A DNA stretch of 20,000 nt from the IMG/VR virus record IMGVR_UViG_3300009159_000059, one strand, 5' to 3'. This DNA comes from an uncultured virus (IMG/VR IMGVR_UViG_3300009159_000059) (Duplodnaviria; Heunggongvirae; Uroviricota; Caudoviricetes). The notes under the pieces were generated by a model that saw only the letters and a list, made by a program, of their open reading frames with translations, was not told where the DNA came from and did not search any database. This document shows, in pieces, positions 1,165-20,000 of this stretch (its first letter is position 1; the number at the start of each line of letters is the position of its first letter). Position numbers and translations under genes: made by a program.

Positions 1165-4100
1165 ATGAGCATAAAGATCCAAGTGCGTAGGGACACAGCC
1201 AGTAATTGGTTGTCCGTAAATCCAATCTTATCCTCAGGCGAAATCGGTTTAGAAACTGATACCTTGAGATTTAAATATGGTGATGGGACCCTTAAATGGG
1301 AAGATCTGCCTTATCCCTCTATCGGAGGAGGGAGTGTCCAATCGATTTCTGCTGGGTATGGGCTTCTCGGTGGTATTATAACTAGCCAAGGCGAAATAAA
1401 TGTCGATGGAAATATTGCTCTTGATGTCCTAAGCGAACAAGCTCTGGCTAATAAGGCTTTTAAAAACAAATCTGGAACATTTACCAATATCTTCGTCGAC
1501 AATGGCATATTGAATCTGGACCTATCCGCATCTAATAATTTTATCGTAAATTTTGAAGAAGACATCGATAGCTTTACCACTTCTAACAATCCAGAAAATG
1601 GTATGGCTTTCGTTATAACTCTCGTGTTGAATATTACAACTGGCTCAGCCGTCACTTGGCCATCTAATATCATATGGCCAGACAACGTGTTCCCTACCAG
1701 CAGTGCTGTCGGGACTACAGATATCTTTAAATTATTGACCATCGATGGTGGTTCGTCATTTTATGCTTACATAGTTGGCCAAGGGTATAACACTAATTCT
1801 ATACCACCGAACTTCTTGGATGAATTCTTAAGTCCTAGCGATGGTAAACCAGGCGATGGCTTTGGCATATCGGCTGCTATTTCAAAGGATGGTAGAACTG
1901 CTGTGGTTGGTTCTATATATAATCAATATTCTGGCGCCGCATATGTGTTTAGAAGATCTGATAATAGATGGCTACAGATAGCCAAACTACTTGGCGAAGA
2001 TAATGAAAGTGCTTTTGGAACGTCAGTTGCGATTTCTGAATATGGTGATGTGATAGCAGTAGGTGCACCTCAAGAAGGCACCAACGATATTGGCGCTGCT
2101 TATATCTTCACCGAAGCCAATGATTCTTGGTTAAACAATAAAATAATACCTGAAGATAGCGCCGACATAACGGCTAAAAATTTAGTTAGGCTATTTGGCT
2201 CAAGTGTCTCGCTTTCTAATGATGGTACTCTTCTCATTGTTGGAGCCCCAGACTTTGATGTTCCAGATAATCAAAACACCGGCGCGGTTTATGTGTTTAG
2301 ATCCGACGGTCCGCCAACGCCACCACCACCGCCAATTAATAATTATTATATATATGGAACCGGTAAAAACACAGATTGTGAACTTGGCCTAGGTGATAAA
2401 AACAATAGGGCACTTTTTACATTAATCAAATCAGCGACACCGCTGCAAATAGCGGTAGGTAAGAATTATGCTTTATATATAAAGCATGATGGAACATTAT
2501 GGGCAACTGGTAAAACTGGATTAGGCCTACCGTCCGATCCGATGAACCAGTCTTATCGAAATTTTATCCAATTAGGCAGTGATTATTGGCTTGATGTTAA
2601 AGCTAATAATAAAGGAACTACATTACTCATTAATGCCGATGGATCACTTTGGGGATGTGGTTATAACCAAGATGGTAATCTTGGTATTGGCATAACGACG
2701 AATGTTAACGACCTGATTATGCTTGATGATAATAATTGGCGAGCCATAAGCTGCTGCTCTTCTAGTTCATATGGCATTAAATCTGATGGGACCCTTTGGA
2801 GCTGGGGCGACAACACATATGGCCAGCTTGGACATGGAGATTTATACCCTAGACTGTATCCTGCTGAAGTCGGGGTCGACGCTGGTACCTTTGGCACTAA
2901 TGTTACTGGCGGCACTGGCGGCACTGGCGGCACTGGCGGCACTGGCGGCACTGGCGGCACTGGCGGTACAAATCCTGTTTATACTGATTGGGTTTACATT
3001 TCGCAAGGAAGTTCTGCGCATCATGTGTTCGCCATACGAAACGATGGAACTAACGCTACACAAGAAGATGGTACATTGTGGGCATGGGGTAAGAATAATC
3101 TGTACCAATTGGGTCTTAATGATACTATCGATAGAAGCACACCAACACGGGTCAATTCTGAATTCTGGATTAAGGTAGAAGCTGGGACTGACAGTAGCGC
3201 TGGTATCACTTCGGCCGGAGAGTTATTTGTTTGGGGCTATAATTCTTATGGCGAGCTTGGTCTGAATGATGTTGTTGTTAGGCCAATACCTACTAGAAAT
3301 GCGTTTTTTCCAGCCTTTTTTAGTGATTTGAGCTTTAATGGCCATACTTTAATCGCTCTAGACACTATAGGTTACATGTACGGCGCAGGTTTTAATTATT
3401 ATGGGCAATTAAGCCAAGGCTTTTTTAGCGCTAACGATCCATCAAATCAGATAAGAATGTTAACTCAGATAACCAAATCAGGTGGTTGGATTATCGCTAC
3501 TATCCTTGATTCTTTAATAGCGTCACGTGACAGTTTACTACCACCACCGGTAGCAGGACCGACACCTACACCTGTTACGCCAACACCGACTCCAACTTCT
3601 ACGCCTACGCCGACTCCTACACCTACACCAACGCCAACGCCAACCCCTGCGGAATGTGCCACAGTATGGACTGGACGCACGTTACCTGGCCTATCGATTG
3701 GCACAATCGCCGCAAGTCCAGATAAAATAGTAATCACGACTGCAGATGGCGGGACAGCTGCGGTGTCGACAGACGGGATAAACTGGTCGTTAAGCTCAAT
3801 ACCTAGCACGACATGGGTCGATGCGATGTATGCAAATAATTTATTCTTAGTGAGTGGCTATGATGCCGTCAATGTAGGCACGCAGCGTCTGATATCGTCA
3901 CCGGACGGTATTAATTGGACACCTATAGCATTACCAATTGGCATAGCCGGAAAAATGGCGTCCGGCAATTCGATTTATTTAATCTTTAGCGTATGGGGAA
4001 CATCATTTCTTCGATCTAATGACCTGATTACTTGGCTGCCTGGTACTTTACCAACTCCGATCGATTGGATTTGCGCTCAAGTGATTCATAATGGTGTCTA

Positions 4101-7100
4101 TTTCTTAGCCACCAGCTCCAATTCAGACACTTATATAATATCGACCGATGGTATTAATTGGACTGTGTCATCATTTCCAAGCAGCACATCTAGAAATTGG
4201 CAAGCTACTACATTTGGCTTAGGCCTTTTTGTGGCTATAAACTATAGTGCTAATCCGCCGCTATCTTTAACCTCTAGCGATGGTGTTACTTGGGTCAGCA
4301 ACACGATGCCTTTGGTTGGAAAGTATTCAAGGGTGATTTTTGGAAATGGCTTCTTCCTTGCGCTAATTGAAGAATCAACATATGGAGCTCTATCGTACGA
4401 TGGTAGAACATGGTCTACAGTAACTCTACCATACTCTTCTAGTTGGAAAAATGGTGTTTATGCTCACGATATGTTTATAGTTTCTGACCTCGGTAATAAT
4501 CAGAACTATATCACATCGCCATGTAAGAAAACGCCTACGCCTACACCGTCAGGAACATATACTTGGCATTACGTAATATCAGGTTTAAATACTAGAGGCC
4601 AACTAGGGTTAAGCGATATAGCGGACAGAGACCAATTTATAGCCCAATCGTGGAATACATTACCAGTAAATTCAAACGATTTTCCTTGTATCAGCCATGG
4701 CTACGATCATACGATGATGGTGAAAACTGACGGTAGTTTATACGCTTATGGTAACAATGATAGAGGCCAATTAGGCTTGCCGACATCGATGGGAGCTTAT
4801 TTAAACGTTCCAGTTTTAGTGTCTGCCGGACCTTACCACACTGTTTCATGTGGATATAAATACTCTATAGCTGTTGCTGCTAACGGTGACATATTTGCAA
4901 CAGGTGCGAACGAGAGTGGGCAATTAGGTGTCGGTGATTTAACAGACAAGATGGGCCTGACCCAATTGGTCGGCTATAAAGCATACATCGGCACAGATCC
5001 AAAGGTAGGCGCTACGCCATGTGTAGCCACAGGAAAAACAGCGACAGTGATGGTGTTATTAATAAGAATGACGAGTGGTGATTTAATACCAAGATACTAT
5101 TCATGGGGTCTAAATCAATCTGGCCAACTAGGCCAATCTAATAGTGACTACTCTTATCAGACATCGACCCCTAGTGAGATAGCAAACCTTAACGCCTCTA
5201 CACAACCTGCAGTATATGGCGGAATATTGAATCATCATTTCTTTGCAATAGCTTTAGATTCAGACTATAATCACATCTTCTGTGGATGGGGTAATAATGA
5301 CCGCGGCCAGCTGGGCAACGCCTTAATTAACATAGATAACCCTATGCTTGGGGCTGTAAGTGGATGGTCGAGTGATTCAATAAAAATATTTAATGTGGCT
5401 ATCGGACAAAGTTTTACAGCCTTTATTGCGCAGACTGGGATAGGAAGCCCCGCATCACTATTGATCTCTGGTGCTAATGACCGCGGCCAAATCGGAGTCC
5501 CAGTTGGTAATTCCACTAATATCTTTACAGAAGTTCCATTTCCAGTGAATTACACAAGCTGGGATAAAATAAGTGCTGGTGCTGATTTTATTTATGCTAC
5601 CGCCAGACAGACTGGTAGCCGAAATACTTTTGGCTGGGGCGACAACACATATGGTCAACTAGATGGCGGACCTACAGCTCCTAACAGTTATATCTCGCCA
5701 ACATTATTAGATGCACGAGAATCTGAGACATTAAACACTAACCATCTTGGTTTCGGATTTGGCGGGTATTGGGCTTATTATACCGATACACCATCAGCGA
5801 GTGCATGCGCAATACGCTTAAAATATAATGGAGTGTCGACGAGAATAGGATCAAATGGTTTATCGTTCGCTGTCGGTGATGTAATAACCGTTGCCGGTAT
5901 AGGCGGCCTTGGTGCTTGGTCTTCTGTCGATGGTGTGTATAAAATAAAAGATTTTGACAACACTAATGGGATGATTGTCGAGTGCGTTTCGCCAGGGTGT
6001 TTTAATGGCTGGAATACAGCGAGTGGTTCCTTAGCTGCCCCGATAGTCATGGGTAGAGCTATAACATCAAATGGTGGCGCTGTGGTAACATCTACAGCCA
6101 CGACGGGTAACGTACCATGGGAAGTGAATTTTTATTGCAACGTGACCCCTACTCCAACTCCTACTCCGACCCCGACGCCAACTCCGACGCCAACTCCGAC
6201 GCCATCAGCCGGTGGCTCTGCTTTTGCAGCTGGTGCCGCTGGCCTTATCTCAGCCAAATTAGGAGTCATAACTCCTAAATTCACTAAATTTTCACCTGAC
6301 AATACATCTTGGAAATTCGCAGCTGTCGATAGTTTTTATGGCGCGTTCCTTATTAAATCAGATGGTACACTATGGGGCTCTGGGTATAATACTTACGGCC
6401 AACTCGGTACTGGTACAAATAAGACCGTTACAGATATGGTTCAGATTGGTACTGACAATGATTGGAAATTCATAACCGCCGACGCAGCATCAACCATTGC
6501 TATGAAGGATGACGGTACTATATATGGCGCTGGCTACAATGACTCTGGAACACTTGGTTTGGGTGACCGACTACCACGGATGTTCTTTACTTTAATAAAT
6601 TCTGATACTTGGTTGACGATAAAAACATATCGACACCAAACCGTGGGTGTGCGTTCAGATGGTAAACTGTTTATATGGGGCTTATTTAGTGACGTATTTT
6701 ATTCTAGTAACAATATAAATAGTCCACCTAGAGATGTGCCATTTGAACTGGTAGATGCCGGAAGTGGTTATATAAAAGCAGATTGCGGATATAATACTTT
6801 GTATGCCATAAAGTCTGATGGTTCATTATATGGTATGGGTGAAAATGGGTCAGCCCAGATAATGATGCCGCCAAGTACTATAATAGAAAGTATGACTAAA
6901 TTAACTTCATCAGAGAATTGGGTTGATATTGCAGCCAGCGACCAAGCACTACTATTGCTAAATGATATTGGTGAGATCTTTTCGTTTGGTATAGGGGAAG
7001 TATTAGGGACAGGTAAACGGTATACTCCTAATGGTCTTGAAAAAATCGATAAGGATTTTAAATATACAAAGGTATTCGCTACAACCAATGTCGCCGGAGC

Positions 7101-10100
7101 ATTAAAAACTAACAAAAGGTTAATGGTTTGGGGAAATAATTATTACAATGCGCTTTCTTTAGCCTTGGTAAATAAAATAAGCACACCACAAATATCAAGG
7201 CCAGACAATATGTATGATCATGTGGCCTTGTCGGCGACATTTTCTATAGCCATCGGTGCTGTCAATTTAACACCTACACCTACGCCTACAATACCAAATG
7301 TTTTATATGTAAATGGTCGCAATATTTATGGTAATTTGGCTACTGGCGATACCATCGGTAGAGGTTCTTTTTATGAAATATTGAGAGATAATGCCAAAGC
7401 TGCAGCAGCCTCAGAGAGTGCTTGCGCTGTTGTAAAATCAGACGGTACATTATGGACAGCGGGAACTAATTTTAATGGCATATTGGGGCAAGGAAGCAAC
7501 AATATGCTAAAACAATATACATTAATGCAAGTTGGAACAGATACTAATTGGGTGAATGTAGAATCAAACAGCCTCTCCGCGTTTGCAGCATACAAAGAAA
7601 ATGGTGACATATATGTCTGGGGCCAGTCAGGTGTACCTGATTTAATACCTTTTAACGCGTCGAATCCGGGAATCTTTACTAGCCCAACACTTGTGGCTCT
7701 TGCAGATATTTCAAAAATAGTGTATCTATATATAACTGATCTAATAGTTATTAAAGACAATGGGTCTTTATGGGCTCAGGGAAATAATTCTAACGGTAAC
7801 CTTGGGCTTGGAGCGAATGCAACGATTAACACCTTAACTCAAGTTAACGCCGGCCCATTTAAGACTAGTAGAACATCGTACGCCTACAATGGCTCTAATG
7901 GCATGTACATCAAAACCGACGGAACGTTGTGGGCTACAGGAGCTAATGGCTTACAGACGCCTTGTTCTGGGTTTTTAGGAACAGGCGATACTTCAATCGT
8001 AAACGTCTTAACCAAAATCGGCACCGACACAAATTGGGATAAAGTCACACTCATCTGGGACTACGGGGCTTATGCGATTAAAACAGATGGTACACTTTGG
8101 GGATGTGGCACACAGATACTTAATCAAAACAATACTGCGAATTTTGGTTCTTCTTTAACATTTGTTCAGATTGGCACAGACACAGATTGGCATGATTTTG
8201 CAGGCACTAGCTATCAAGAATTATACATTATTAAAAACGATGGTAGTCTGTATGCTGCTGGAAATAATTTACTTAATAATTTTACAGGACCTATTGCTTC
8301 GATCAATCGAATTAACGATCCGATGACATTTAATTATGTAAGCAGCGGCCTATGGGATAATGGTAACTTCTTTGTCAGCGGCATCCTTGTACCACCAGGC
8401 CCAACACCAACGCCAACACCGACACCTACGCCAACTGGTTGCGCCATAAGCTCGTTAACCTTGACACAATTAGCGCCCGCTAATTATAATTCCTACGGTA
8501 TCGCTATAAGCCCTGATGATAAAAACATATACACATCTAGCACATCTAGCCCTCCCAATAGTTTACCTATAGTCAATATTTATCAAAGAAATATGTTTAA
8601 CGGTAGTTTAACGCTAATGCAAAATATTTCTACTCTTGTAAATCCTATCTCTATTTGTGTAAGTCCAGATGGAAAGTTTGTTTATACTGTTATTGATATT
8701 GATGCTAAGATTTTCATCTATTCAAGAAATGCCACGACTGGTGTGCTAACCGATGTGGGATCAGTCGCAACCGAAACTGGTTACTTATATTTAAATACTA
8801 CTATCCTCCTACAACCGCGTGAAATGTGCATAAGCCCAGATGGAAAAAACGCTTATGTAATTTGTTCTAGGGGCGATTCCCCAAATAATGCTATGATAGA
8901 TGTCTTTACCAGAGACATAGTTACAGGTTTATTGACTCATTTTGAAACAGTCGAAGGCGATATAGGACCAAATAGTTATTCAATTTGTATAAGTCCTGAT
9001 GGCCTTGATGTTTATGTTACAGATTATGATAGCGTCAATGGGGTACGTCTGTTCTCAAGAAATGCTTCAACAGGCAGCCTGACATTCAATGGGTCCATTG
9101 CATCGGGCTTAGATCCACATGGAATTATCGTTAGCCCAGACGGTCTTTCCGTCTATGTCACAAGCGTCAATAATGGCGGCCTTAACGATCAAATAAGCAT
9201 CTATACTAGAGATGCGGCTACAGGATTACTCACAGACGCGGGCTCAATAGCAACTGGTGATAAGCCATACCAATTATCAATAAGCGATGACGGTTATTCA
9301 GTTTATACTGCTAACAAGACAGGTCAAAAGATCTCGGTCTATTCTAGGGCCTCAGATGGATCGCTCACGGCTGATGGTTCTGTGTCAACCAGCGGCCAAT
9401 ATCCATATCGCAGTGTAGTGAGCCATGATGGCAAGAATGTTTATATGACGAATCTTGATTCAAATCACATATCTGTGTTTGCAAGAACATGCGGGTCTGC
9501 TCCTCCACCAAACACTAACCTTTTAGTGTCAGGCATGAGGACAAGCAGCATAGAGCTAGGCGTCCCTGCGAGCTATGTGCCTGCAGTTCCTAACAACTAC
9601 ACTTTCTATGGTGTCAGTAACGTTGCTACTTGGGACGGTGTCTTTGGGAACACAAATGTCTTATTTGCAACTAAAGGTGGCGAATTATGGGCATGTGGTC
9701 GAAATAACTTTGGGCAGCTTGGTATAGGTAATACTACAAATCAAGCTGAATTAGTGCAAGTCGGCAATGGCACCGACTGGAGTTATGTGGTTACATCTGG
9801 TGTCAGCACGCTAGCATTAAAGACCGATGGTACCTTATGGGGAACAGGTTATAATAGCTTCGGCGAATTAGGTCTTGGTCATACTAACCAAGTTAACACA
9901 TTCACACAAGTCGGTGTTGAGACAGACCATAATAATAATATAGCAATGAGTACGACCGGAAGCTCATATGTTTATAGAAGTGGTATACTTTACGCTACTG
10001 GCAACAATGCGAATTATCAGCTCGGAACAGGTAATACCATTAATTTAAGCACATTTAACGCAATGGATGCGCAAAGTTGGTATAATGGTCCATGGATGAT

Positions 10101-12930
10101 GGCGGCTCTTCCAAGCGCATTTATAGCGATCAAAGATGATAATACACTTTGGGGCGTCGGTAAAGGTTACGAACCACCAAGCGGTCAATTATCCGGCTAC
10201 CATCGCTATGGTGGCGGTATCGATGCTTACTTTTCTTTTCTTACTCAGATCGGCACCGACACTGATTGGATAAGATGCTTCTCTACTCAATATGGCGCAT
10301 CATTTGCTATCAAAGATGATGGCACTCTTTGGGCGACAGGGTTAAATGCTTTATCGCCATCGCAGAGTTATAGCATACTTGGTTTCAACCCTGCTACAAC
10401 CATCGGCTTGATGTACTATACTCAAGTCGGGACAGATACTGACTGGAATAATATCGTTAGTATGTCGAGCACAATTGGGCTAAAGAGTGATGGGACTGTT
10501 TGGGGGATCGGGCAGAATCAATACGGCCAATTAGGCCAAGGATCCACAAACGCTGTCGGGCCACTGTTTACTAAATTAAACAATGCGACCGATTGGACCC
10601 AAATTGCTCAGATGAATTATGGCACTGCCTTGTTGGGCTCCTTGGTGCCTGCTCCGACACCTACTCCAACACCAACACCTACCCCAGCTTCTTATTATGT
10701 TTATGGCTCTGGTAGAAATCAAGACCATCAACTTGGTATAGACACATTTGGTGCTGATTTGAATAACATGACATTGTTGACTAGTGGCAACGCTTCATCA
10801 GTCACAATATCGAATACTTCTAGTATGCTATTGATGAATGATGGTACGCCAACACCGACACCCACGCCCACACCTACACCCACGCCCACGCCAACGCCAT
10901 CTGCTAACACAGGTGCGATTTTTGGTTTTGGTTTAACCTCGAATTCAATGAATGTAAGCATCACTAACTTAGTTAATAGCTCTGGAGTCGTAGCAGCAGA
11001 TGTTACCTATATCGGACTAGTAAGGTCAAGTATAGCGGCTGCAGCTATTGGTGGCGGTAAGGCGATTTTTGCTTATGGTGTAACTGACCAATGGTTACCT
11101 ATGGTTACATTTAATACTGTCACAAATACCGGCGATTTAGAAACAGCACAAGACCTAGTGGGAACACGCAGAAAGAATCTAGCCGCCGCCCCTTATGGTC
11201 AAGGTCAAGCAGTATTTGCCTTTGGTGTAAATGAATCAGCGGTGGCGGTTTCAATTTCTAACAAAGTATCATCGCTCGGTGTTATTGAGACAGATAGCTT
11301 CGCTGTAGGAACATCTAGATCGCTTTTGGCAGCTGCCGGTTATGGTGCAGATAAAGGCATATTTAGTTATGGGCTAACTACTGCCGGGGTTGTAACTGTC
11401 ACGAATTTGGTAAGCAATCTCGGTGATATTATTGTCGACAGTGCCGGCGTCGGTACTGCTCGGTCAGGGCTAGCGGCTTCATCTTATGGCAGCGGTAAAG
11501 CGATATTCGGCTTTGGTAACACACAGGCATATTTATCGATCACCAATTTAATAAACGAAAATGGCGTAGTAGCAACCGATACTGCTGGCGTCGGCACAGA
11601 ACGTAGTAACCTAGCAGCAGCCGGCTACGGGTCAGGCAATGCGATCTTTGGTTATGGTTATAGCGGAAGCGGTTCATATGTCTCACTAAGCAATCTGGTT
11701 TCGAATGTTGGTGTGGTAGCTACAGACACTGCTGGCATTGGAATGGCACGAGTAAACTTAGCAGCTGCTAGTCTTTTAGCTGCCCCTACACCTAGCCCAA
11801 CGCCGACTCCAACGCCTACACCAACGCCGACTCCAACGCCAACGCCTACACCAACGCCAACATCGACACATTGTTTATCACAGATCCAGAGAATAGCAAC
11901 TCCCAATGGCATGTTTGCGCATGGAAATATAGTATCTCGTGACCAAAAATATGTCTATGCTAAAATGTATGGTTCTCAAACCGGCTTTGTCCAAGGTGTG
12001 GCTCAATATAAGATTACAGCTTTAGGAACATTAGAATATTTATCTTTATACAGTACCGGGGGATGGGATATATATGAGTCGCAATCTGGGACACATGTCT
12101 ATACTATCGATAACCAAAACGATACAATAGCGATTCTATCCAGAAATACCACAGATGGCACACTGGGGACACCGACTATATTGGCGACACCATACCCACC
12201 TGGTGAATTAATTGGTTCCGCTGATGGCAAGCACATTTATATAACTAATATCAACCGCGGTCCGGCGCCATATATGGCTAGAATAATGATATATGATATC
12301 AATAGCACTAACGGGATGTTATCATACAATAACACGATAGATATTCCAGACTCATCACCAATCGCATTTTCAATGACTTTATCGCCAAGTGGTCTATATT
12401 TTTATGCTATAACTGGCGCTCCTTATGGTGTCACTAATGCTGGTAACAAACTAAACGTGTTCATACGGAATACGACCTCTGGGACGCTGATTCTAATCGA
12501 TGCATTAGATATACCCGCAAATACCAGCGATATCCTGATATCATCGGATGGTCTATATTTATACACGATGGGCTTCCAGCAAAGTAACGGGATTAATAGT
12601 ATCGAAATAAATACATATGCCATCGGTATAACAGGCGGTTTGACATCAACTGGGACCACATATGTTATGGAAGCCAACGGTGGTGTTGGTAAAACACAAA
12701 TGATAGAAGCAACGGATGGGACAGCCATCTATTGTACAAGAGGAAAATCTGGGATAGTAATCGATAAAAACCCAACGACAGGCATAATAACCGGAAGCAC
12801 GGAGATTTTAAACTTAGTGCTTGGTGGAAGCGTGACTATAGCAGCTAAAAACTCAGATGTTAGATTTATCTATGTCGGTGAATATAGCAATAAGTCTATA
12901 GTGACTCTAAGCACGCTTTGTCCACCATAA
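1165..12930 (+). CDS. Giant (3921 aa) modular fibre/adhesin with an Mtd_N anchor and multiple beta-propellers joined by Pro-Thr linkers
   Basis: Order by motif: anchor ~1165-1790; FG-GAP x3 1813-2310; RCC1 x7 ~2335-3540; Asp-box (SxDGxxW) propeller 3655-4524; RCC1 x7 ~4550-5785; small Cys-flanked beta domain 5806-6138; RCC1 x7 ~6210-7260; RCC1 x7 ~7300-8390; lactonase/YVTN-like x7 8440-9492; RCC1 x7 ~9515-10645; single RCC1 repeat 10687-10845; Kelch-like AIFG(Y/F)G x6 ~10910-11780; lactonase-like x7 11872-12921. No signal peptide is evident. Confidence 0.9.
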   Translation: MSIKIQVRRDTASNWLSVNPILSSGEIGLETDTLRFKYGDGTLKWEDLPYPSIGGGSVQSISAGYGLLGGIITSQGEINVDGNIALDVLSEQALANKAFKNKSGTFTNIFVDNGILNLDLSASNNFIVNFEEDIDSFTTSNNPENGMAFVITLVLNITTGSAVTWPSNIIWPDNVFPTSSAVGTTDIFKLLTIDGGSSFYAYIVGQGYNTNSIPPNFLDEFLSPSDGKPGDGFGISAAISKDGRTAVVGSIYNQYSGAAYVFRRSDNRWLQIAKLLGEDNESAFGTSVAISEYGDVIAVGAPQEGTNDIGAAYIFTEANDSWLNNKIIPEDSADITAKNLVRLFGSSVSLSNDGTLLIVGAPDFDVPDNQNTGAVYVFRSDGPPTPPPPPINNYYIYGTGKNTDCELGLGDKNNRALFTLIKSATPLQIAVGKNYALYIKHDGTLWATGKTGLGLPSDPMNQSYRNFIQLGSDYWLDVKANNKGTTLLINADGSLWGCGYNQDGNLGIGITTNVNDLIMLDDNNWRAISCCSSSSYGIKSDGTLWSWGDNTYGQLGHGDLYPRLYPAEVGVDAGTFGTNVTGGTGGTGGTGGTGGTGGTGGTNPVYTDWVYISQGSSAHHVFAIRNDGTNATQEDGTLWAWGKNNLYQLGLNDTIDRSTPTRVNSEFWIKVEAGTDSSAGITSAGELFVWGYNSYGELGLNDVVVRPIPTRNAFFPAFFSDLSFNGHTLIALDTIGYMYGAGFNYYGQLSQGFFSANDPSNQIRMLTQITKSGGWIIATILDSLIASRDSLLPPPVAGPTPTPVTPTPTPTSTPTPTPTPTPTPTPTPAECATVWTGRTLPGLSIGTIAASPDKIVITTADGGTAAVSTDGINWSLSSIPSTTWVDAMYANNLFLVSGYDAVNVGTQRLISSPDGINWTPIALPIGIAGKMASGNSIYLIFSVWGTSFLRSNDLITWLPGTLPTPIDWICAQVIHNGVYFLATSSNSDTYIISTDGINWTVSSFPSSTSRNWQATTFGLGLFVAINYSANPPLSLTSSDGVTWVSNTMPLVGKYSRVIFGNGFFLALIEESTYGALSYDGRTWSTVTLPYSSSWKNGVYAHDMFIVSDLGNNQNYITSPCKKTPTPTPSGTYTWHYVISGLNTRGQLGLSDIADRDQFIAQSWNTLPVNSNDFPCISHGYDHTMMVKTDGSLYAYGNNDRGQLGLPTSMGAYLNVPVLVSAGPYHTVSCGYKYSIAVAANGDIFATGANESGQLGVGDLTDKMGLTQLVGYKAYIGTDPKVGATPCVATGKTATVMVLLIRMTSGDLIPRYYSWGLNQSGQLGQSNSDYSYQTSTPSEIANLNASTQPAVYGGILNHHFFAIALDSDYNHIFCGWGNNDRGQLGNALINIDNPMLGAVSGWSSDSIKIFNVAIGQSFTAFIAQTGIGSPASLLISGANDRGQIGVPVGNSTNIFTEVPFPVNYTSWDKISAGADFIYATARQTGSRNTFGWGDNTYGQLDGGPTAPNSYISPTLLDARESETLNTNHLGFGFGGYWAYYTDTPSASACAIRLKYNGVSTRIGSNGLSFAVGDVITVAGIGGLGAWSSVDGVYKIKDFDNTNGMIVECVSPGCFNGWNTASGSLAAPIVMGRAITSNGGAVVTSTATTGNVPWEVNFYCNVTPTPTPTPTPTPTPTPTPTPSAGGSAFAAGAAGLISAKLGVITPKFTKFSPDNTSWKFAAVDSFYGAFLIKSDGTLWGSGYNTYGQLGTGTNKTVTDMVQIGTDNDWKFITADAASTIAMKDDGTIYGAGYNDSGTLGLGDRLPRMFFTLINSDTWLTIKTYRHQTVGVRSDGKLFIWGLFSDVFYSSNNINSPPRDVPFELVDAGSGYIKADCGYNTLYAIKSDGSLYGMGENGSAQIMMPPSTIIESMTKLTSSENWVDIAASDQALLLLNDIGEIFSFGIGEVLGTGKRYTPNGLEKIDKDFKYTKVFATTNVAGALKTNKRLMVWGNNYYNALSLALVNKISTPQISRPDNMYDHVALSATFSIAIGAVNLTPTPTPTIPNVLYVNGRNIYGNLATGDTIGRGSFYEILRDNAKAAAASESACAVVKSDGTLWTAGTNFNGILGQGSNNMLKQYTLMQVGTDTNWVNVESNSLSAFAAYKENGDIYVWGQSGVPDLIPFNASNPGIFTSPTLVALADISKIVYLYITDLIVIKDNGSLWAQGNNSNGNLGLGANATINTLTQVNAGPFKTSRTSYAYNGSNGMYIKTDGTLWATGANGLQTPCSGFLGTGDTSIVNVLTKIGTDTNWDKVTLIWDYGAYAIKTDGTLWGCGTQILNQNNTANFGSSLTFVQIGTDTDWHDFAGTSYQELYIIKNDGSLYAAGNNLLNNFTGPIASINRINDPMTFNYVSSGLWDNGNFFVSGILVPPGPTPTPTPTPTPTGCAISSLTLTQLAPANYNSYGIAISPDDKNIYTSSTSSPPNSLPIVNIYQRNMFNGSLTLMQNISTLVNPISICVSPDGKFVYTVIDIDAKIFIYSRNATTGVLTDVGSVATETGYLYLNTTILLQPREMCISPDGKNAYVICSRGDSPNNAMIDVFTRDIVTGLLTHFETVEGDIGPNSYSICISPDGLDVYVTDYDSVNGVRLFSRNASTGSLTFNGSIASGLDPHGIIVSPDGLSVYVTSVNNGGLNDQISIYTRDAATGLLTDAGSIATGDKPYQLSISDDGYSVYTANKTGQKISVYSRASDGSLTADGSVSTSGQYPYRSVVSHDGKNVYMTNLDSNHISVFARTCGSAPPPNTNLLVSGMRTSSIELGVPASYVPAVPNNYTFYGVSNVATWDGVFGNTNVLFATKGGELWACGRNNFGQLGIGNTTNQAELVQVGNGTDWSYVVTSGVSTLALKTDGTLWGTGYNSFGELGLGHTNQVNTFTQVGVETDHNNNIAMSTTGSSYVYRSGILYATGNNANYQLGTGNTINLSTFNAMDAQSWYNGPWMMAALPSAFIAIKDDNTLWGVGKGYEPPSGQLSGYHRYGGGIDAYFSFLTQIGTDTDWIRCFSTQYGASFAIKDDGTLWATGLNALSPSQSYSILGFNPATTIGLMYYTQVGTDTDWNNIVSMSSTIGLKSDGTVWGIGQNQYGQLGQGSTNAVGPLFTKLNNATDWTQIAQMNYGTALLGSLVPAPTPTPTPTPTPASYYVYGSGRNQDHQLGIDTFGADLNNMTLLTSGNASSVTISNTSSMLLMNDGTPTPTPTPTPTPTPTPTPSANTGAIFGFGLTSNSMNVSITNLVNSSGVVAADVTYIGLVRSSIAAAAIGGGKAIFAYGVTDQWLPMVTFNTVTNTGDLETAQDLVGTRRKNLAAAPYGQGQAVFAFGVNESAVAVSISNKVSSLGVIETDSFAVGTSRSLLAAAGYGADKGIFSYGLTTAGVVTVTNLVSNLGDIIVDSAGVGTARSGLAASSYGSGKAIFGFGNTQAYLSITNLINENGVVATDTAGVGTERSNLAAAGYGSGNAIFGYGYSGSGSYVSLSNLVSNVGVVATDTAGIGMARVNLAAASLLAAPTPSPTPTPTPTPTPTPTPTPTPTPTSTHCLSQIQRIATPNGMFAHGNIVSRDQKYVYAKMYGSQTGFVQGVAQYKITALGTLEYLSLYSTGGWDIYESQSGTHVYTIDNQNDTIAILSRNTTDGTLGTPTILATPYPPGELIGSADGKHIYITNINRGPAPYMARIMIYDINSTNGMLSYNNTIDIPDSSPIAFSMTLSPSGLYFYAITGAPYGVTNAGNKLNVFIRNTTSGTLILIDALDIPANTSDILISSDGLYLYTMGFQQSNGINSIEINTYAIGITGGLTSTGTTYVMEANGGVGKTQMIEATDGTAIYCTRGKSGIVIDKNPTTGIITGSTEILNLVLGGSVTIAAKNSDVRFIYVGEYSNKSIVTLSTLCPP
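2905..2967 (+). repeat. 9-bp tandem repeat (ACTGGCGGC)x7 encoding (TGG)7
   Basis: Six perfect copies plus ACTGGCGGT, in frame, inside a loop of the first RCC1 domain. Confidence 0.95.
3541..3648 (+). repeat. Pro-Thr linker (degenerate CCN-ACN hexamer repeat)
   Basis: PPPVAGPTPTPVTPTPTPTSTPTPT... separates the first RCC1 domain from the Asp-box propeller. Confidence 0.9.
6145..6204 (+). repeat. Pro-Thr linker (TP)10
   Basis: Degenerate hexamer repeat between the small beta domain and the third RCC1 domain. Confidence 0.9.
8392..8436 (+). repeat. Pro-Thr linker
   Basis: PPG(PT)6 lies between the fourth RCC1 domain and a lactonase-like propeller. Confidence 0.85.
10648..10686 (+). repeat. Pro-Thr linker preceding the isolated RCC1 repeat
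   Basis: Encodes [13 protein letters not shown]. Confidence 0.85.
10846..10899 (+). repeat. Pro-Thr linker (TP)9 following the isolated RCC1 repeat
   Basis: Begins directly after ...MLLMNDG. Confidence 0.9.
11785..11862 (+). repeat. Pro-Thr linker
   Basis: PTPSPTPT... lies between the Kelch-like and last lactonase-like domains. Confidence 0.9.
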
Positions 12931-12969
12931 TTTAATTTTTTTAGATATCAAGATTTAAGCGAGAATACC

Positions 12970-15900
12970 ATGACGACAAGCAACAGTTTATTATTAGCCG
13001 GCGGTAATTTTTACGGCCAGCTAGGAGCATCAAGTACTCTTAAACCAACATTTGAATATTGGGCTTTTTCTAGTAAGTATGGTCCTTGGGCTAAAGCATC
13101 AACATCAGACAGCGGTCATACACTATTGATTAATATTGACCAGACATTGTGGGCGTCAGGGAATAACGAATACGGGCAGCTGGGGATTGGCACCACCGGC
13201 GCTGGCTATACACAATTTACTAAAATTAATGATACTATACAATGGATGGACGTTGCTACTTCAAACTGGGGTTCTTATGGCCTCAGTACAGTAGGCAATT
13301 TATATATTTGGGGAAGACAGGCAAGCAATAATTTTAATCCCATTGTTTCCATCACAGAGTTAGTTGTTTTAGATTATGTGGGCGGTAAGGTAAAATTCAA
13401 AAGCCTTGCTACCGGCAGTGGTACAAATCACATGCTTTTGATCGACAATGATGGTCAACTGTGGGGATGGGGTTCAAATACACGAGGACAATTAGGCTTA
13501 GGTGATACTTCAGTGCGCATAAATCCTGTTTTGATAAACGCAAATGAATGGCTATCTGCTGCAGTCGGAGATTCTTTTTCTATAGTATTAAGGAAAGATA
13601 ACACACCATGGGGCACTGGTGCTAATGATAGTTTTCAGTTAGGCCAAGGCTCATTCGACTCAAATGATAAAACAGTCTTGACAGCAATAAATACAACATC
13701 ATCATCTTCTAAGATCATTACCCAAATCGCTGCAGGAACAAAGAGTGCCCTTGCTCTAGACAACACTGGGCAGGTTTATGGCTGGGGTGGTAATACTTAT
13801 GGCGAATTAGGCCTAGGACATAATTTAAAAGTGCCTGATGCAGCACTTATCCAGAACCTGCCAGGACCAGCAAGCTATATAGCTATTAAAGACCATTCTA
13901 TTATAGTAGTAAGCAACGAAATGCCAACTCCTACACCATGTGTGGCTGGAGAATTAATTATCGCCGGCACAGTGGCGACGGCCGTTAATGCCTACGATTT
14001 AGCGATATCAAGTGATCAGAAGAATGTCTATGTGGTTCATTTAACCGGAGACATAATATCTATCTATGATCGAAATATAACCACTGGCGCACTTACAAGT
14101 GCAGGGACCATAGCCACAGGCGAATCATCTACAGCTGTTATATTATCAAACGACGGTATCAATGTCTATGTGGTTAACTCTGCCGGCCAAACAATTTTTA
14201 TCTATAATAGGAATTTAACCACTGGCGCACTTACCAGCGCCGGAACCATAGCGACAGAAGATGCACCAAGAGACATAGTCGCATCAAATGATGGTAAAAA
14301 CGTCTATGTGGTTAATAGTCAAAGCAATACAGTCTCTATTTACGATAGAAATTTAACCACTGGCGCACTTACCAGTGCTGGAACAATAGCCACTGGTGAT
14401 AGTCCATTTAATATAGCGATATCAAATGATGACAAGAATGTTTATATAAATGAATCTGCTGATGAATTAGTGATTTATAATAGAGATTTAACCACTGGCT
14501 CACTTACCAGCGCTGGAACCATAGCCACGGAGCAGGGTAGTTGGGGTATAGCGGTGTCTAGCGATGATAAGAATGTTTATGTAGTGAATGGTGCAAATGG
14601 TAGTAGCAACACTATCTCGATCTATATTAGAAATTTATCAACTGGCGCACTTGCCAGCGCTGGTACCATAGCCACTGGTACTGGTTCACTCGGGATAGCT
14701 GTACCAAATGATGGCAAGAATGTCTATGTTGTAAACTCTGTTAGTAACACACTTTCGATTTATAGCAGAAATACTACTACTGGTGCTCTAACAATCGCTA
14801 GCACTATAGCCACTGGTTCAACGCCATACAATGTTATCGTGTCAAGCGATAGCAGACATGTTTATGTATGTAACGAGACGGACGACATAATTTCGGTCTT
14901 TACCACATGTGAATCAACACCTACTCCAACACCTACTCCAACTCCAACTCCAACTCCAACACCAACACCAACACCAACACCAACACCAACACCAACACCA
15001 ACACCAACACCATGTGTTGTTGGAGATTTAATAAGCGCAGGCACGATAGCTACGGGAGAATACCCAGCTAGTTTAGCTCTGTCTATCGATCAAAAGAATA
15101 TTTATGTTACTGGCAACTACGCAATTTCTATTTATAACAGAAATTTAACGACTGGCGCACTTACCAGCGCTGGGACCATAGCCGCAACATCGGGAACAGT
15201 TGATATAGTCGCAACGGTCGACAATATTAGCGTTTATGCTGTTAGTTCTGACAGTAATTCGATATTAATCTATAATAGAGAATTGACTGCTGGGGCACTT
15301 ACAAACTTTGGAACCATTGCTACTGGTACTGGACCGCTGAGCATAACTGCGACGATTGATAATATGAGCGTATTTGCGGCTAATTCTGGAGACGATACGC
15401 TTTCGGTATACGACAGAGATATAACCACCGGCGCACTCACTAATATTGGAACTTTAGCAACTGGAGACACGCCTCGGGACTTGGCAGTATCTAATGACGG
15501 GAAGAGCATTTATGTGACTAACCAAAATAACAATTTAATATCAATTTATAGCAGAGACTTAGTTACTAGAGTAATCACCAGCATCGGCACTATCGCAGCA
15601 GGTAGCGTGCCCTGGGGTGTAGTAGTATCTAACGATAATGATAATGTTTATGTGGTGAATGGTGGTAGCAACACAATCTCGATCTATAACCGAAACTTAA
15701 CTACTGGCACACTTACTAGCGCTGGAACCATAGCTACAGGCGATAACCCGCTCAAAATAGCTATCTCAAATGATGATACAAAAGTTTATGTGACTAGTTA
15801 TGGCATAAATTCACTTTCGATTTATAATAGAAATATAGTCACCGGCGCTTTGACTAGCGTCGGTTTTATAGCCGCCGGCACTACACCATACACAGTAGTA

Positions 15901-16899
15901 GTATCAAATAATAATAAAAACGTTTATGTGACTAATTCAGGTGCAGACACAATCTCCATTTTTGCTGTTTGTGAGTTAACTCCAACACCAACCACTTCAG
16001 TCGGTGCCGTATTTGCTTTTGGTAATAATAGTTCGAATATAATCAACCTAGTTTCAGATATCGGTATTATCACTGAGGATATAAGCGTTGTTGGTACAGC
16101 TAGATATTCGGGGGCTGCGGCATCGTTCGGGACCAGCGGAACTGGCAAAGCGATCTTTGCATATGGTGTTAACGCTAGCACCCAGTCTGTTTCTTTATCG
16201 AACATCATATCCAGTGGCGGAACTGTGGCTTATGATACAGCTGGAGTAGGCACAGCAAGATATGGCTTAGCAGCTGCAGGATACGGAGCCGGCAAAGCAC
16301 TATTTGGGTTTGGCGATGCTGGAAAATATTTTCAGTCATACATTCCAGTAAGTATAACTAATCATGTCACTGACAATGGCATAATATCTTCAGATACCAT
16401 AGGAGTTGGAACAACGAGATACGGCTTAGCTGCGGCTTCTTATGGCACAGACAAAGCAATATTTGGCTTCGGATTTAAAAACTCTCCTAATTTACATCTC
16501 TCTATAACTAATTTAGTATCGAATACTGGTGTTGTCTCGACCGACACGACTGGTGTTGGAACTGGTCGTCGTGATCTCGCCGCCGCTGGCTACGGAGGAG
16601 ACAAAGCAGTATTCGGAGGCGGTAATGGTGATTATAATTCTGGTTCATTTGGCACCTATAATCTTGTCGATAATAATGGCATAGTTTTAAACAATAACAC
16701 ATTCGCGACATTCAGGCAATGGTATGGTTCAGCCTCTTCTTTTGGGCAATCTGGAGCAGAGCAAGCTATCTTTTCTTTTGGTTTTGTTCCTAACACCCAG
16801 ACATCATTTACGCTGATAATAAATAATAATGGAATACCAAGCAGCGAAGTCGCTCAGATCGGATCGGAGAAGCATAGTGCGTCTGGTGCTAAGTTATAA
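12970..16899 (+). CDS. Anchorless modular beta-propeller protein (1309 aa): RCC1 x6, two lactonase/YVTN-like 7-blade propellers and Kelch-like x6
   Basis: RCC1 repeats span 12970-13920 (six). [13 protein letters not shown] propellers span 13939-14910 and 15013-15972. AIFGFG/TDTTGVGTAR repeats span ~16003-16896. PT linkers join the modules. A weak SD (GAGA) is at 12961-12964. Confidence 0.9.
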   Translation: MTTSNSLLLAGGNFYGQLGASSTLKPTFEYWAFSSKYGPWAKASTSDSGHTLLINIDQTLWASGNNEYGQLGIGTTGAGYTQFTKINDTIQWMDVATSNWGSYGLSTVGNLYIWGRQASNNFNPIVSITELVVLDYVGGKVKFKSLATGSGTNHMLLIDNDGQLWGWGSNTRGQLGLGDTSVRINPVLINANEWLSAAVGDSFSIVLRKDNTPWGTGANDSFQLGQGSFDSNDKTVLTAINTTSSSSKIITQIAAGTKSALALDNTGQVYGWGGNTYGELGLGHNLKVPDAALIQNLPGPASYIAIKDHSIIVVSNEMPTPTPCVAGELIIAGTVATAVNAYDLAISSDQKNVYVVHLTGDIISIYDRNITTGALTSAGTIATGESSTAVILSNDGINVYVVNSAGQTIFIYNRNLTTGALTSAGTIATEDAPRDIVASNDGKNVYVVNSQSNTVSIYDRNLTTGALTSAGTIATGDSPFNIAISNDDKNVYINESADELVIYNRDLTTGSLTSAGTIATEQGSWGIAVSSDDKNVYVVNGANGSSNTISIYIRNLSTGALASAGTIATGTGSLGIAVPNDGKNVYVVNSVSNTLSIYSRNTTTGALTIASTIATGSTPYNVIVSSDSRHVYVCNETDDIISVFTTCESTPTPTPTPTPTPTPTPTPTPTPTPTPTPTPTPCVVGDLISAGTIATGEYPASLALSIDQKNIYVTGNYAISIYNRNLTTGALTSAGTIAATSGTVDIVATVDNISVYAVSSDSNSILIYNRELTAGALTNFGTIATGTGPLSITATIDNMSVFAANSGDDTLSVYDRDITTGALTNIGTLATGDTPRDLAVSNDGKSIYVTNQNNNLISIYSRDLVTRVITSIGTIAAGSVPWGVVVSNDNDNVYVVNGGSNTISIYNRNLTTGTLTSAGTIATGDNPLKIAISNDDTKVYVTSYGINSLSIYNRNIVTGALTSVGFIAAGTTPYTVVVSNNNKNVYVTNSGADTISIFAVCELTPTPTTSVGAVFAFGNNSSNIINLVSDIGIITEDISVVGTARYSGAAASFGTSGTGKAIFAYGVNASTQSVSLSNIISSGGTVAYDTAGVGTARYGLAAAGYGAGKALFGFGDAGKYFQSYIPVSITNHVTDNGIISSDTIGVGTTRYGLAAASYGTDKAIFGFGFKNSPNLHLSITNLVSNTGVVSTDTTGVGTGRRDLAAAGYGGDKAVFGGGNGDYNSGSFGTYNLVDNNGIVLNNNTFATFRQWYGSASSFGQSGAEQAIFSFGFVPNTQTSFTLIINNNGIPSSEVAQIGSEKHSASGAKL
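14917..15012 (+). repeat. Pro-Thr linker (TP)16 including nine perfect ACACCA units
   Basis: The perfect hexamer run spans 14959-15012. Confidence 0.95.
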
Positions 16900-16934: not shown

Positions 16935-17558
16935 ATGGCAAGCAAGTTGAATTCGGAATTTAATTATCGTTACCAAGTCCAAGGCGAGACAGTCTGGGAA
17001 AAAATTAAAACCCTAAAGGGTTTTCTAGAGGGCCGAATAAGGGCAGCAGCTCTTGAAGAAATTAGCGAAAAGAAATACCAAGCTAAACTACTCGAATTAG
17101 AGCATCTTAAAAAGACTAATGCTTTACCGCACGTTATCCTTAATCTCGAAGCAGAGATTATGGAAACTGAAAGCTTTTTCCAAACACAGACTGAAGCTTT
17201 TAAATTGAATCTAGATGAAATAGCTATCTTAAATAAATTATTGGCTGAAGCTTATGAAATAGCAGAGCCGACAAGGATAGAAGGATACACCGATGAGCAG
17301 ATGTTCGAGGCAAATGCGGCAAATGAGTTCACAGTGATGATTGGTAAGGATATCCAAGCTGAGATAATTGCCCATGGCCGACCAAGCGCCGCAAAGATCA
17401 GAAATGCTATGTCTAACCCTATGACGCTATTAGCACTTCAGAACGCTGGTCTGATACCTAAAGAGGCCATCATGCTTCGTGGTAACGATAGTCCGCTGTC
17501 TATAGAACTTAAGCCTGCTGCTTTAGAAGACCGCTCTACACAACAGCTGATCCAATAA
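16935..17558 (+). CDS. Hypothetical alpha-helical / coiled-coil protein (207 aa)
   Basis: Strong SD. The E/K/L/A-rich amphipathic segments (e.g. EKKYQAKLLELEHLKK, FKLNLDEIAILNKLLAEAYE) suggest helices. No transmembrane segment or catalytic motif was recognised. Confidence 0.85.
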   Translation: MASKLNSEFNYRYQVQGETVWEKIKTLKGFLEGRIRAAALEEISEKKYQAKLLELEHLKKTNALPHVILNLEAEIMETESFFQTQTEAFKLNLDEIAILNKLLAEAYEIAEPTRIEGYTDEQMFEANAANEFTVMIGKDIQAEIIAHGRPSAAKIRNAMSNPMTLLALQNAGLIPKEAIMLRGNDSPLSIELKPAALEDRSTQQLIQ

Positions 17559-17637: not shown

Positions 17638-20000
17638 ATGGCATGGAAACAAGAGGCTATAATCTACCCCGGACGTAACGCTCCTCCAGCGCCAGTGCCG
17701 ACACCGACACCGACTCCAACACCAACCCCAACCCCAACACCTTTCAGTGCTCTAAAATATATCGCTACGGCTGGAAAAATTGGTGGGTTCGACAGTCTTA
17801 CACAAAAAGCCTGGATAGCTAATAATCTAAATAGCTGGGTGCCTTTCGACCTGCCAGTTTCAGGCAGTTGGACCAACAGCATTTATGGTAATGGCAGATT
17901 TGTACTGGCCGATCTTAATACCAAGCGTATATCTTTATCATCCACAGACGGTATAAATTGGACGCAAGGAATAATACCGCCAGATTTTATATCAACTAAC
18001 CCAAATCCGCCAAGACCATTATTTGTCTACGCCGCATCAGCATATTCCAACGGTATCTTCATCGTCATGAGTGATGATGGTAATTCTTGCATAAGATCTA
18101 CCGATGGCATAAATTGGGATTACATAATTATAAATACCGACAGACCAACCGGACCATCATCATATACCGGTATTGTTAATATTGCTGTTAATAACGTAAA
18201 CACGATTGCTTGTAGTGACGGCTTTGGTGGAGTATTATACTCTACCGATAACGGTATAAATTGGACTTGGAAAAGGATACTCGGAGATGCTAATGATATT
18301 TACGGGTGGTATGGTATCGCTTATGGAAAAGGCAAATTCGTTTTAATCCAAAATGGTGCGTCTTCTGGCACCAACACCAGAGGCAAAACCGCCATAACTA
18401 GCGATTTTATTTCTTTCACATATGGCAATATACCTAACGGTGGCTGGTATTTCGCTGGTTATAATCCTATCTTTGAAAAATATTACGCTTCTAGTTATAG
18501 CCCACGTAGCATTTATTCTAGTGTGGATGGTTTAACTTGGTCTTTAGAAATATCTGAAGTATTAACCTCTAGTCCTTATGTCTTTGATGGTAATAATTTA
18601 ATCGCGCCAAGCTATGTTTATTTGCCGCCTAATGGTGTATGGAAATATTTCAATATAGATCCAAACAATAATAGTAATGATTTTCTCGTCTCCGCTTCTT
18701 ATACTGCCCCAACTCCTGCACCGACCCCAACACCAACCCCAACACCGACACCGACTCCTACACCGACACCGACACCGACTCCTACACCGACACCAACTCC
18801 TACACCGACACCAACGCCGACTCCAACGCCAACACCTACACCAACACCTACTCCTACACCAACACCTACTCCGGCATTTTCTGGTTCTAGCGTTTACATA
18901 GGAAATTCTACACAAACACTTTCGATATTTTCGCGCGACGCTAGCACGGGGCTATTGTATGGTACATCTACAATTGCTTCAGGATCGTCAAGCGGTGCAA
19001 CTATCAATGGTGTTTGTGTTTCCGCTGATGGTACAAACGTTTATGCCCTTGATGTTGATAACACTAGAATTTTAATATTTAATCGCGACATCAACACTGG
19101 AGAGTTAACAGCTAATGGTATAATTAGCACAGGTAATGGTCTGTCTAGAGAAATTGCTATTTCTGCTGACGGCACATGCGTTTATGTGGTTAAAGTAGTT
19201 ACGAGTAATGTCGAGAATTTAGCCTTACTCTTCAATCGGAACATTAGTACAGGGGCATTATCAGCTGGGACTACAATAAGCACCGGAAACGATCCATCAG
19301 GAATATGCATTTCATCTGATGGCTCTAGTGTATATGTGGTTAATCAAACTTCTGAAACGGTTTCAATATTTTCTCGAAATACTAGCACAGGAGTATTAAC
19401 TTCCAATGGCACAGTACCCACAGATGTAAATCCTTGGAAAATCATTATTTCAGCAGATGGCGCAAGCGTTTATGTTCTTTATACAGACGCGAAAATGATA
19501 ATTTTTTCTCGCAACACTAGCACAGGAGCATTAACCGACAATGGAACGATTACATTATCGACTGGTATCAATCAGTATACATATGGTTTTTGCATTTCTG
19601 TAGATGGAAAAAACGTTTATGTGACTAATAATTATTTTAACGAAGTATTAATCTTTGATCGCAACACTTCCACAGGAGGGCTTACTTCTAATGGTAAATT
19701 AACCTTAGCAGGCTATAATTACCCACAAAAGATTTGTATTTCAGCCGATGGGAAAAATGTTTATGTGGTTTGGTATGGTTCTAATAAAACGTCCATCTTA
19801 GACCGAAACACTAGCACAGGGTCATTAAGCGAAAGTAGCATAATAGCGTCAGGAGATGGATTTTTAGGAATTTGCATATATCCTTTATCTAATTCACCAA
19901 CGCCAACGCCAACGCCAACACCAACACCAACACCAACACCAACACCAACACCAACACCAACACCAACACCAACACCAACACCAACACCAACACCAACACC
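17638..20000 (+). CDS. Anchorless modular beta-propeller protein, 3'-truncated (>787 aa), absent from the ORF track
   Basis: Translated by hand with no stop to the window end. An in-frame TAA immediately precedes the ATG. Order: [14 protein letters not shown] linker 17683-17742, Asp-box propeller (STDGINW repeats) ~17745-18705, PT linker 18709-18873, lactonase-like x7 ~18880-19884, PT linker from 19897. Confidence 0.9.
18709..18873 (+). repeat. Long Pro-Thr linker (55 aa) with 18-bp higher-order units
   Basis: 25 consecutive PT pairs at 18721-18870. CCGACACCGACTCCTACA occurs at 18745 and 18769, with a variant at 18787. Confidence 0.95.
19897..20000 (+). repeat. Pro-Thr linker, perfect microsatellite running off the window
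   Basis: (CCAACG)3 followed by at least 14 perfect CCAACA units. Confidence 0.95.

Follow-up and report, generated by a model that had tools for sequence, protein, structure and literature searches.

The window analysed here, a stretch of 20,000 bases, corresponds to bases 254610-274609 of the 274,625-base virus record IMGVR_UViG_3300009159_000059 (Caudoviricetes; record completeness estimated at 70%), and all of its large open reading frames (ORFs) lie on the + strand. This work concerns two adjacent genes, i.e. gene 1, encoding a giant fibre protein that holds a single 'orphan' RCC1 repeat between two Pro-Thr linkers, and gene 2, encoding a protein that begins with an RCC1 domain of six repeats. 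The two pieces probably make up one seven-bladed propeller split over two proteins. The genes and the proposed parts, followed by the other mapped parts of gene 1, are:

1165..12930, + strand: gene 1, giant fibre protein of 3921 residues (ORF and translation; Pfam)
12970..16899, + strand: gene 2, protein of 1309 residues with the six-repeat RCC1 domain, two lactonase propellers and a GAVFAFG-repeat domain (ORF, Pfam)
10687..10845, + strand: orphan single RCC1 repeat, 53 residues, gene 1 residues 3175-3227 (translation; profile and paralogue match)
12970..13920, + strand: six-repeat RCC1 domain, gene 2 residues 1-317 (repeat count, Pfam, AlphaFold2 model)
10645..10686, + strand: upstream Pro-Thr linker, 14 residues (translation; its length varies among relatives)
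10846..10899, + strand: downstream Pro-Thr linker, (TP)9, 18 residues (translation)
9517..10644, + strand: D5, the last complete seven-repeat RCC1 domain, adjoining the orphan repeat upstream (repeat count)
1171..1509, + strand: N-terminal tail-fibre anchor of gene 1, residues 3-115 (Pfam Mtd_N and PHROG)
10900..11784, + strand: six-repeat GAxFxFG domain, ~55 residues per repeat (no Pfam family)
11869..12927, + strand: C-terminal lactonase-type propeller of gene 1 (Pfam Lactonase)

The gene 1 protein is built of propeller beads strung on Pro-Thr linkers and matched the Pfam families Mtd_N, FG-GAP, RCC1/WD40_RLD (555 bits) and Lactonase, the beads being ordered as an N-terminal Mtd_N/tail-fibre domain, FG-GAP repeats, five RCC1 domains, and then lactonase-type propellers and others. 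Its anchor was recognised both by Mtd_N (residues 5-42, E 8.5e-11) and by the PHROG tail-fibre families phrog_31660 (E 1.3e-11) and phrog_6049 (E 2e-10); a tail-fibre N-terminal family is also present in a small gene at 517-1152. Unlike gene 1, gene 2 has no tail-fibre N-terminal anchor detectable by Pfam or PHROG, which agrees with an earlier reading of the sequence (hereafter the original prediction) that had called the gene 2 protein anchorless. The same prediction had assigned seven repeats to each of the five RCC1 domains, D1-D5, of gene 1, and our hand count gave the same number in 5/5 domains. All repeat counts are D-strand motifs read by eye, the automated split by regular expression being imperfect. 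A single-repeat hidden Markov model (HMM) built here detected, at E<0.1, 22 of the 35 repeats of D1-D5, 5 of the 6 in gene 2 and the orphan repeat (E 0.027); as it misses known repeats, HMM counting alone cannot replace the hand count.

Exactly one repeat lies between the two linkers at 10687-10845, at the very coordinates given originally. It consists of a D strand, a GxLG loop and strands A to C, begins like the first repeat of a domain and stops at 'NDG', and among its paralogues it is most similar to the opening repeat of D1 (31% identity over 55 residues, E 1e-7 in a small database). Its RCC1 identity is argued from this similarity and from the complex model described below, in which the partner pLDDT (predicted local distance difference test) is 80-85. 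In the flanking DNA, direct repeats are limited to imperfect 18-nt linker units (72-89% identity), and 54 bases of linker were the sole match in phage GenBank records.

Gene 2 begins at the next D strand after the point where the orphan repeat ends, and the end of its domain resembles that of a complete one. By eye its RCC1 domain has six repeats, not the seven of a single-chain domain, as had been claimed for the start of this gene. With the Pfam models PF00415 (RCC1 repeat, cut-off 21.7 bits) and PF25390 (RCC1-like domain WD40_RLD, cut-off 150 bits), the gene 2 N-terminus scored 82.1-94.4 bits against the former; against the latter, residues 2-286 aligned to profile positions 47-336 of 363 with a sub-threshold 136.5 bits (141.8 bits for the N-terminal 320 residues alone). 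Since the alignment skips the first 46 profile positions, one N-terminal repeat is missing. A hidden seventh repeat in cis, which would have contradicted the proposed split, was found neither by HMM nor in the structure model, and the start of gene 2 is fixed, the ATG at 12970 having an in-frame TAA 13 codons before it and no other start codon in between. Alignment of gene 2 with D1 gave two registers with near-equal scores (77.0 and 76.3 bits) and was uninformative for repeat matching. One repeat in gene 1 and six in gene 2 complement each other in number and register.

Co-occurrence and selection in related loci

Distant versions of the locus were sought in three sets of contigs. The viral set, queried with the protein, the fragment (i.e. 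the orphan repeat) and the alignment, gave only L009/L014; the metagenome set gave L010, L011, L012 and L013, and the genome set only L015. Four distinct versions were obtained, namely the window (L010 is the same genome), L009/L014 (91%), L011 (92%) and L012 (87%), and in 4/4 of these contigs an orphan repeat between Pro-Thr linkers is kept together with a six-repeat domain starting the next gene, the sixth repeat being directly followed by a Pro-Thr linker in every one. The pieces thus occur together in related genomes, as had been anticipated, and among these versions no six-repeat gene is without its single-repeat partner. The count excludes L013 (30%, on a 1307-base contig) and L015 (30%, from a bacterial metagenome-assembled genome), which are generic RCC1 proteins; P0005, with 44% identity, is truncated and without context on a 1075-base contig. 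No more distant relatives of the locus were found in the viral, metagenome or genome contigs scanned.

When 1.84 billion representatives were searched with the six-repeat domain, the best 150 matches were giant proteins, and among them P0232, P0132, P0237, P0152, P0252 and P0206 carry N-termini of long continuous RCC1 arrays, so that the search did not help to find further 1+6 splits. In a survey of linker-delimited segments, at least three Pro-rich linkers were present in 4 of 157 long proteins, under a rule that missed the window's own fragment.

One alternative is an artefact, either of the assembly or of the gene calls, with the two ORFs really a single gene or the contig chimeric. In its favour, genes 1 and 2 share a frame in the window, L009 and L012 with a single TAA and 13 codons between them (12928-12972). 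In L011, however, the two genes lie in different frames, so read-through is not conserved; it would moreover supply no seventh repeat, since gene 1 ends in a lactonase-type propeller, and the arrangement recurs in four distinct contigs from separate records. We regard this explanation as hardly credible.

Substitutions were analysed by Nei-Gojobori counts among the four relatives, giving six pairs that are not independent, as the proportions of nonsynonymous (pN) and synonymous (pS) differences. The relatives share about 90% amino-acid identity yet are widely diverged at synonymous sites. For the 53 codons of the orphan repeat, pN/pS was 0.02-0.17 with pS of 0.26-0.68, within reach of the values for D5 (0.05-0.08), the six-repeat domain of gene 2 (0.11-0.15) and the GAIFGFG domain of gene 1 (0.03-0.08), and the C-terminal domain of gene 2 gave 0.27-0.38. 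The most distant pair of fragments, L011-L012, differs by 25.5 synonymous changes over 37.7 sites and by 5.5 nonsynonymous changes over 121.3 sites, and the nonsynonymous deficit departs from neutrality in 6/6 of the non-independent pairs (binomial P 2e-3 to 4e-11). Purifying selection on the orphan repeat is thus strong, and the repeat is maintained as a protein sequence.

These values bear on a second alternative, i.e. that the pieces are evolutionary debris of a domain that lost six repeats or was cut by linker recombination, the fragment being an in-frame filler and the six-repeat domain a relic. Shuffling at Pro-Thr linkers is real at this locus, with two, one or no lactonase propellers in gene 2 depending on the relative. 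Nevertheless, the fragment is constrained like the complete domains (0.03-0.15) at a pS of up to 0.68; it has no indels in the four relatives although the flanking linkers change in length; and variation is confined to 7 of the 53 positions, of which two border the linker, three fall in loops and two are Met/Ile swaps. A repeat under such purifying selection is not decaying debris, and we consider this origin improbable.

Behind the six-repeat domain, gene 2 of the window and of L011 carries two lactonase propellers, that of L012 a single different one and that of L009 none. As these middle domains (13921-15996 in the window) vary while the six-repeat domain stays, kept at 87-92% identity, exchange at the Pro-Thr linkers is indicated; the C-terminal domain diverges as well (pN 0.16-0.21). 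Phage fibre attachment domains usually show a constant N-terminus and variable distal parts. Pairwise synonymous distances also rank the relatives differently from domain to domain, which suggests mosaic recombination.

Structure models and the proposed joint

The first 320 residues of gene 2 were modelled with AlphaFold2 (AF2) from an 88-row alignment, yielding a mean pLDDT of 88.6, a predicted template modelling score (pTM) of 0.86 and 22 strands, which are distributed as three in each of the two end blades and four in each of the other four; residues 1-33 form no strand, so that the N-terminal strand leaves the ring unclosed, i.e. without velcro closure. The best Foldseek matches were seven-bladed RCC1-like domains (HERC2 RLD2, TM-score 0.87, root-mean-square deviation (rmsd) 2.6 Å), and VIA-align placed model residues 1-320 onto UVR8 residues 30-350 with 307 aligned (rmsd 2.1 Å, Z 37), the seven-bladed RCC1-like structures as a group giving Z 34-37 and rmsd 2.1-2.4 Å. 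The model thus points to an open six-sevenths ring and not to a closed six-bladed monomer, the outcome that would have spoken against a split; given its fit to six-sevenths of a seven-fold ring, a closed six-bladed one is not expected.

When the six-repeat domain was modelled together with the 53-residue fragment, the interface score ipSAE (interaction prediction score from aligned errors) was 0.63, 0.81 and 0.76 (median 0.76), against 0.00 for the best of three controls, with at least 93% contact agreement between runs and a partner pLDDT of at least 79. In the calibration of this score, 116 of 157 solved complexes and 2 of 215 mismatched pairs attained the same mark, figures that are approximate here as a custom alignment was used. 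In the complex model the fragment is inserted into the gap, makes contacts at both of its ends and closes the ring: residues 5 and 7 of the fragment meet the third strand of the final gene 2 blade at residues 312 and 314, its residues 45-48 pair with the N-terminal strand of gene 2 at residues 8-11, and its residues 42-43 with gene 2 residues 45-47. Complex modelling had been named as a check of the original prediction, and this result favours it; what the model conveys is compatibility of fold rather than binding. In one detail the prediction needs correction, as it had let each repeat contribute halves of two blades, whereas the actual division is one strand to one blade and three to the following one.

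Covariation was also looked for among the four relatives: M/I at fragment position 50 goes with L/S at gene 2 position 8, and changes at fragment position 47 go with those at gene 2 position 45. As many sites outside the interface divide the relatives in the same way, no inference was drawn from these pairs.

Taken together, a split seven-bladed RCC1 propeller probably joins two fibre proteins of the virion in the manner of a plug and socket. The socket would be the N-terminal six repeats of gene 2, folded as an open six-sevenths ring whose last blade is without its outer strand and whose own N-terminal strand is unpaired. The plug would be the orphan repeat, held out between two stiff Pro-Thr linkers; a lone repeat of 53 residues is not expected to fold by itself and would therefore need a partner. 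Its first strand would complete the last blade of gene 2, and its next three strands, with the N-terminal strand of gene 2, would make up blade seven, so that the ring is closed. By this joint the anchorless gene 2 protein could branch off the fibre some 700 residues from its tip, with the domains behind the socket swappable at Pro-Thr linkers. We infer from the models and the conserved arrangement that the two pieces bind each other in the virion and that branching of the fibre would be the purpose. The idea of a trans-acting plug that completes the propeller of its partner, as first put forward, was supported by every computational test, the binding itself being predicted.

The competing account is that the pieces are independent, the six-repeat domain being self-sufficient (a closed six-bladed ring or a stable open one) and the orphan repeat conserved for something else, e.g. 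another phage or host partner, cis packing on a neighbouring domain, or a role as a structured spacer. Several observations favour this account or otherwise weigh against the joint. The orphan repeat alone scored 15.5 bits (E 0.027) against the Pfam RCC1 model, below the cut-off. The relatives are all close (87-92% amino-acid identity), no distant locus having turned up in the contigs scanned, and the predicted gene 2 interface residues are not specially conserved, 11 of 57 varying against 41 of 263 elsewhere. The monomer alignment comprises 86 mostly seven-repeat homologues and may impose a seven-fold geometry; AF2 run from the four orthologs alone, so as to remove this bias, gave a mean pLDDT of 36.6 and a pTM of 0.32, values too low to speak for either account. 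Likewise, the complex may score well because the predictor already knows the seven-bladed RCC1 fold from solved structures. For a second conserved orphan RCC1-like piece, described below, no six-repeat partner was identified, so such pieces may have some other role, and with a record about 70% complete, other partners could be encoded in the unseen part.

If the pieces were independent, however, the exact complement of one and six to seven, the matching register and the adjacency of the genes would all be coincidence. Furthermore, the ring of the monomer model lacks velcro closure and matches a seven-fold geometry, an approximate reading of the sequences over 274,625 bases showed no further incomplete RCC1 domain, and Pro-Thr linkers on both sides would speak against tight cis packing. 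Independent pieces are therefore judged unlikely, though not remote, and the plug-and-socket joint is retained as the probable explanation.

Other candidate docking elements and neighbouring features

The second orphan RCC1-like piece lies at residues ~3024-3065 of a 4418-residue ORF (G000:C1:187408-200664, within L016), where it comprises a D strand, a GxLG loop and one or more further strands, preceded by a Pro-Thr linker and followed by a Cys-rich module. In its ortholog (L017, record G001) the motif is almost unchanged, and the whole 130-residue stretch is 69% identical.

Downstream of gene 2, a 207-residue protein (16935-17558) separates it from the next fibre-like gene and occupies the same place in L009, L011 and L012. 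Searches of Pfam and PHROG gave no family match for it, and as a guess it may be a chaperone or assembly factor. The protein encoded after it starts with a conserved peptide of ~14-20 residues (17638-17700 in the window; from 12696 onward in L009 and from 13782 onward in L012), followed by a Pro-Thr linker. This peptide is kept in the three relatives that hold the gene, and in L012 the linker leads into GAxFxFG repeats that replace a BNR-like domain. It may be another short docking element.

A wider and frankly speculative proposal would be that in this lineage of large phages the fibres form branched, exchangeable arrays held together by a set of split-fold connectors, by which separately encoded receptor-binding cargos would be plugged onto giant scaffolds and swapped by linker recombination. 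Under that proposal the 1+6 split of RCC1 would be the clearest case, and the second orphan piece and the N-terminal peptide of the downstream protein may belong to the same docking code.

The six-repeat GAxFxFG domain, for which Pfam gave no match, recurs in gene 1 (10900-11784), at the C-terminus of gene 2 (15997-16896) and twice in the 4418-residue protein of G000. It is strongly conserved in gene 1 (pN/pS 0.03-0.08) and fast-evolving at the tip of gene 2 (0.27-0.38), a contrast that would suit a receptor-binding tip in gene 2. Within D1, a loop of the fourth repeat carries an inserted (GGT)n-type run of Gly-Gly-Thr repeats (2890-2960, gene 1 residues ~575-600).

Significance and comparison with known systems

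If the joint is real, a natural split β-propeller would connect two proteins in a setting other than the eukaryotic coat and pore proteins, and the RCC1 fold would have its first example. The attachment of an anchorless protein to a giant phage fibre would then be explained, and the way in which cargo domains can be exchanged behind a constant connector would be displayed. The plug of 53 residues and the socket of ~320 could then serve as a compact, genetically encoded protein-assembly tag. In the accessible text on the jumbo phage phAPEC6, eleven RCC1-like proteins are reported, no function is given for them and no split domain is mentioned (PMC7247149); a joint of the proposed kind would offer a reason why large phages encode so many of them. 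No description of a split RCC1 propeller, or of a trans blade in phage fibres, was found in the titles and abstract openings of the literature searched.

By sequence family and fold, the gene 2 domain belongs with RCC1, UVR8, the RCC1-like domains (RLDs) of HERC2, and RPGR. The solved RCC1-like domains that the model matched, however, carry all seven blades on one chain, whereas at the phage locus six and one are divided between two proteins. Two systems had been named at the outset as parallels. In cohesin-dockerin pairs, a scaffold rich in linkers carries a small module that captures the product of a separate gene; but cohesin and dockerin are two complete folds that meet surface to surface, and the phage pair would be a single fold shared by two chains. 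In donor-strand complementation of the chaperone-usher pathway, an incomplete β fold is completed by strands of the next subunit, which joins the subunits; there, one strand completes an immunoglobulin-like fold, whereas in the phage pair four strands would complete a propeller. No Pfam match to cohesin, dockerin or pilin families was obtained in the proteins of gene 1 or gene 2 (E <= 0.01 for cohesin and dockerin). Both systems appear to be looser analogies than the insertion blade of Sec13, and cohesin-dockerin gives way to Sec13 as the best analogue.

According to the accessible text on Sec13, this open six-bladed propeller is closed in trans by an insertion blade of Sec31, Sec16 or Nup145C in the COPII coat and the nuclear pore, and in Sec13-Sec16 the partner gives three strands of the blade and Sec13 residues 1-6 the outermost one (PMC2922654). 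The phage pair would differ in that Sec13 is a WD40 propeller with helical eukaryotic ACE1 partners and without homology to it, the Pfam matches of genes 1 and 2 being to RCC1 and not to WD40 or ACE1. Moreover, the phage plug is a full sequence repeat that would also give a fourth strand to the neighbouring blade, and it sits between Pro-Thr linkers in a fibre protein, its binding being modelled. The likeness lies in the velcro blade, formed in Sec13, and in the phage pair as modelled, by three strands of the partner and the propeller's own N-terminus. By this mechanistic analogy, rather than by membership of a common family, the Sec13 insertion blade appears to be the closest known counterpart of the proposed phage joint.

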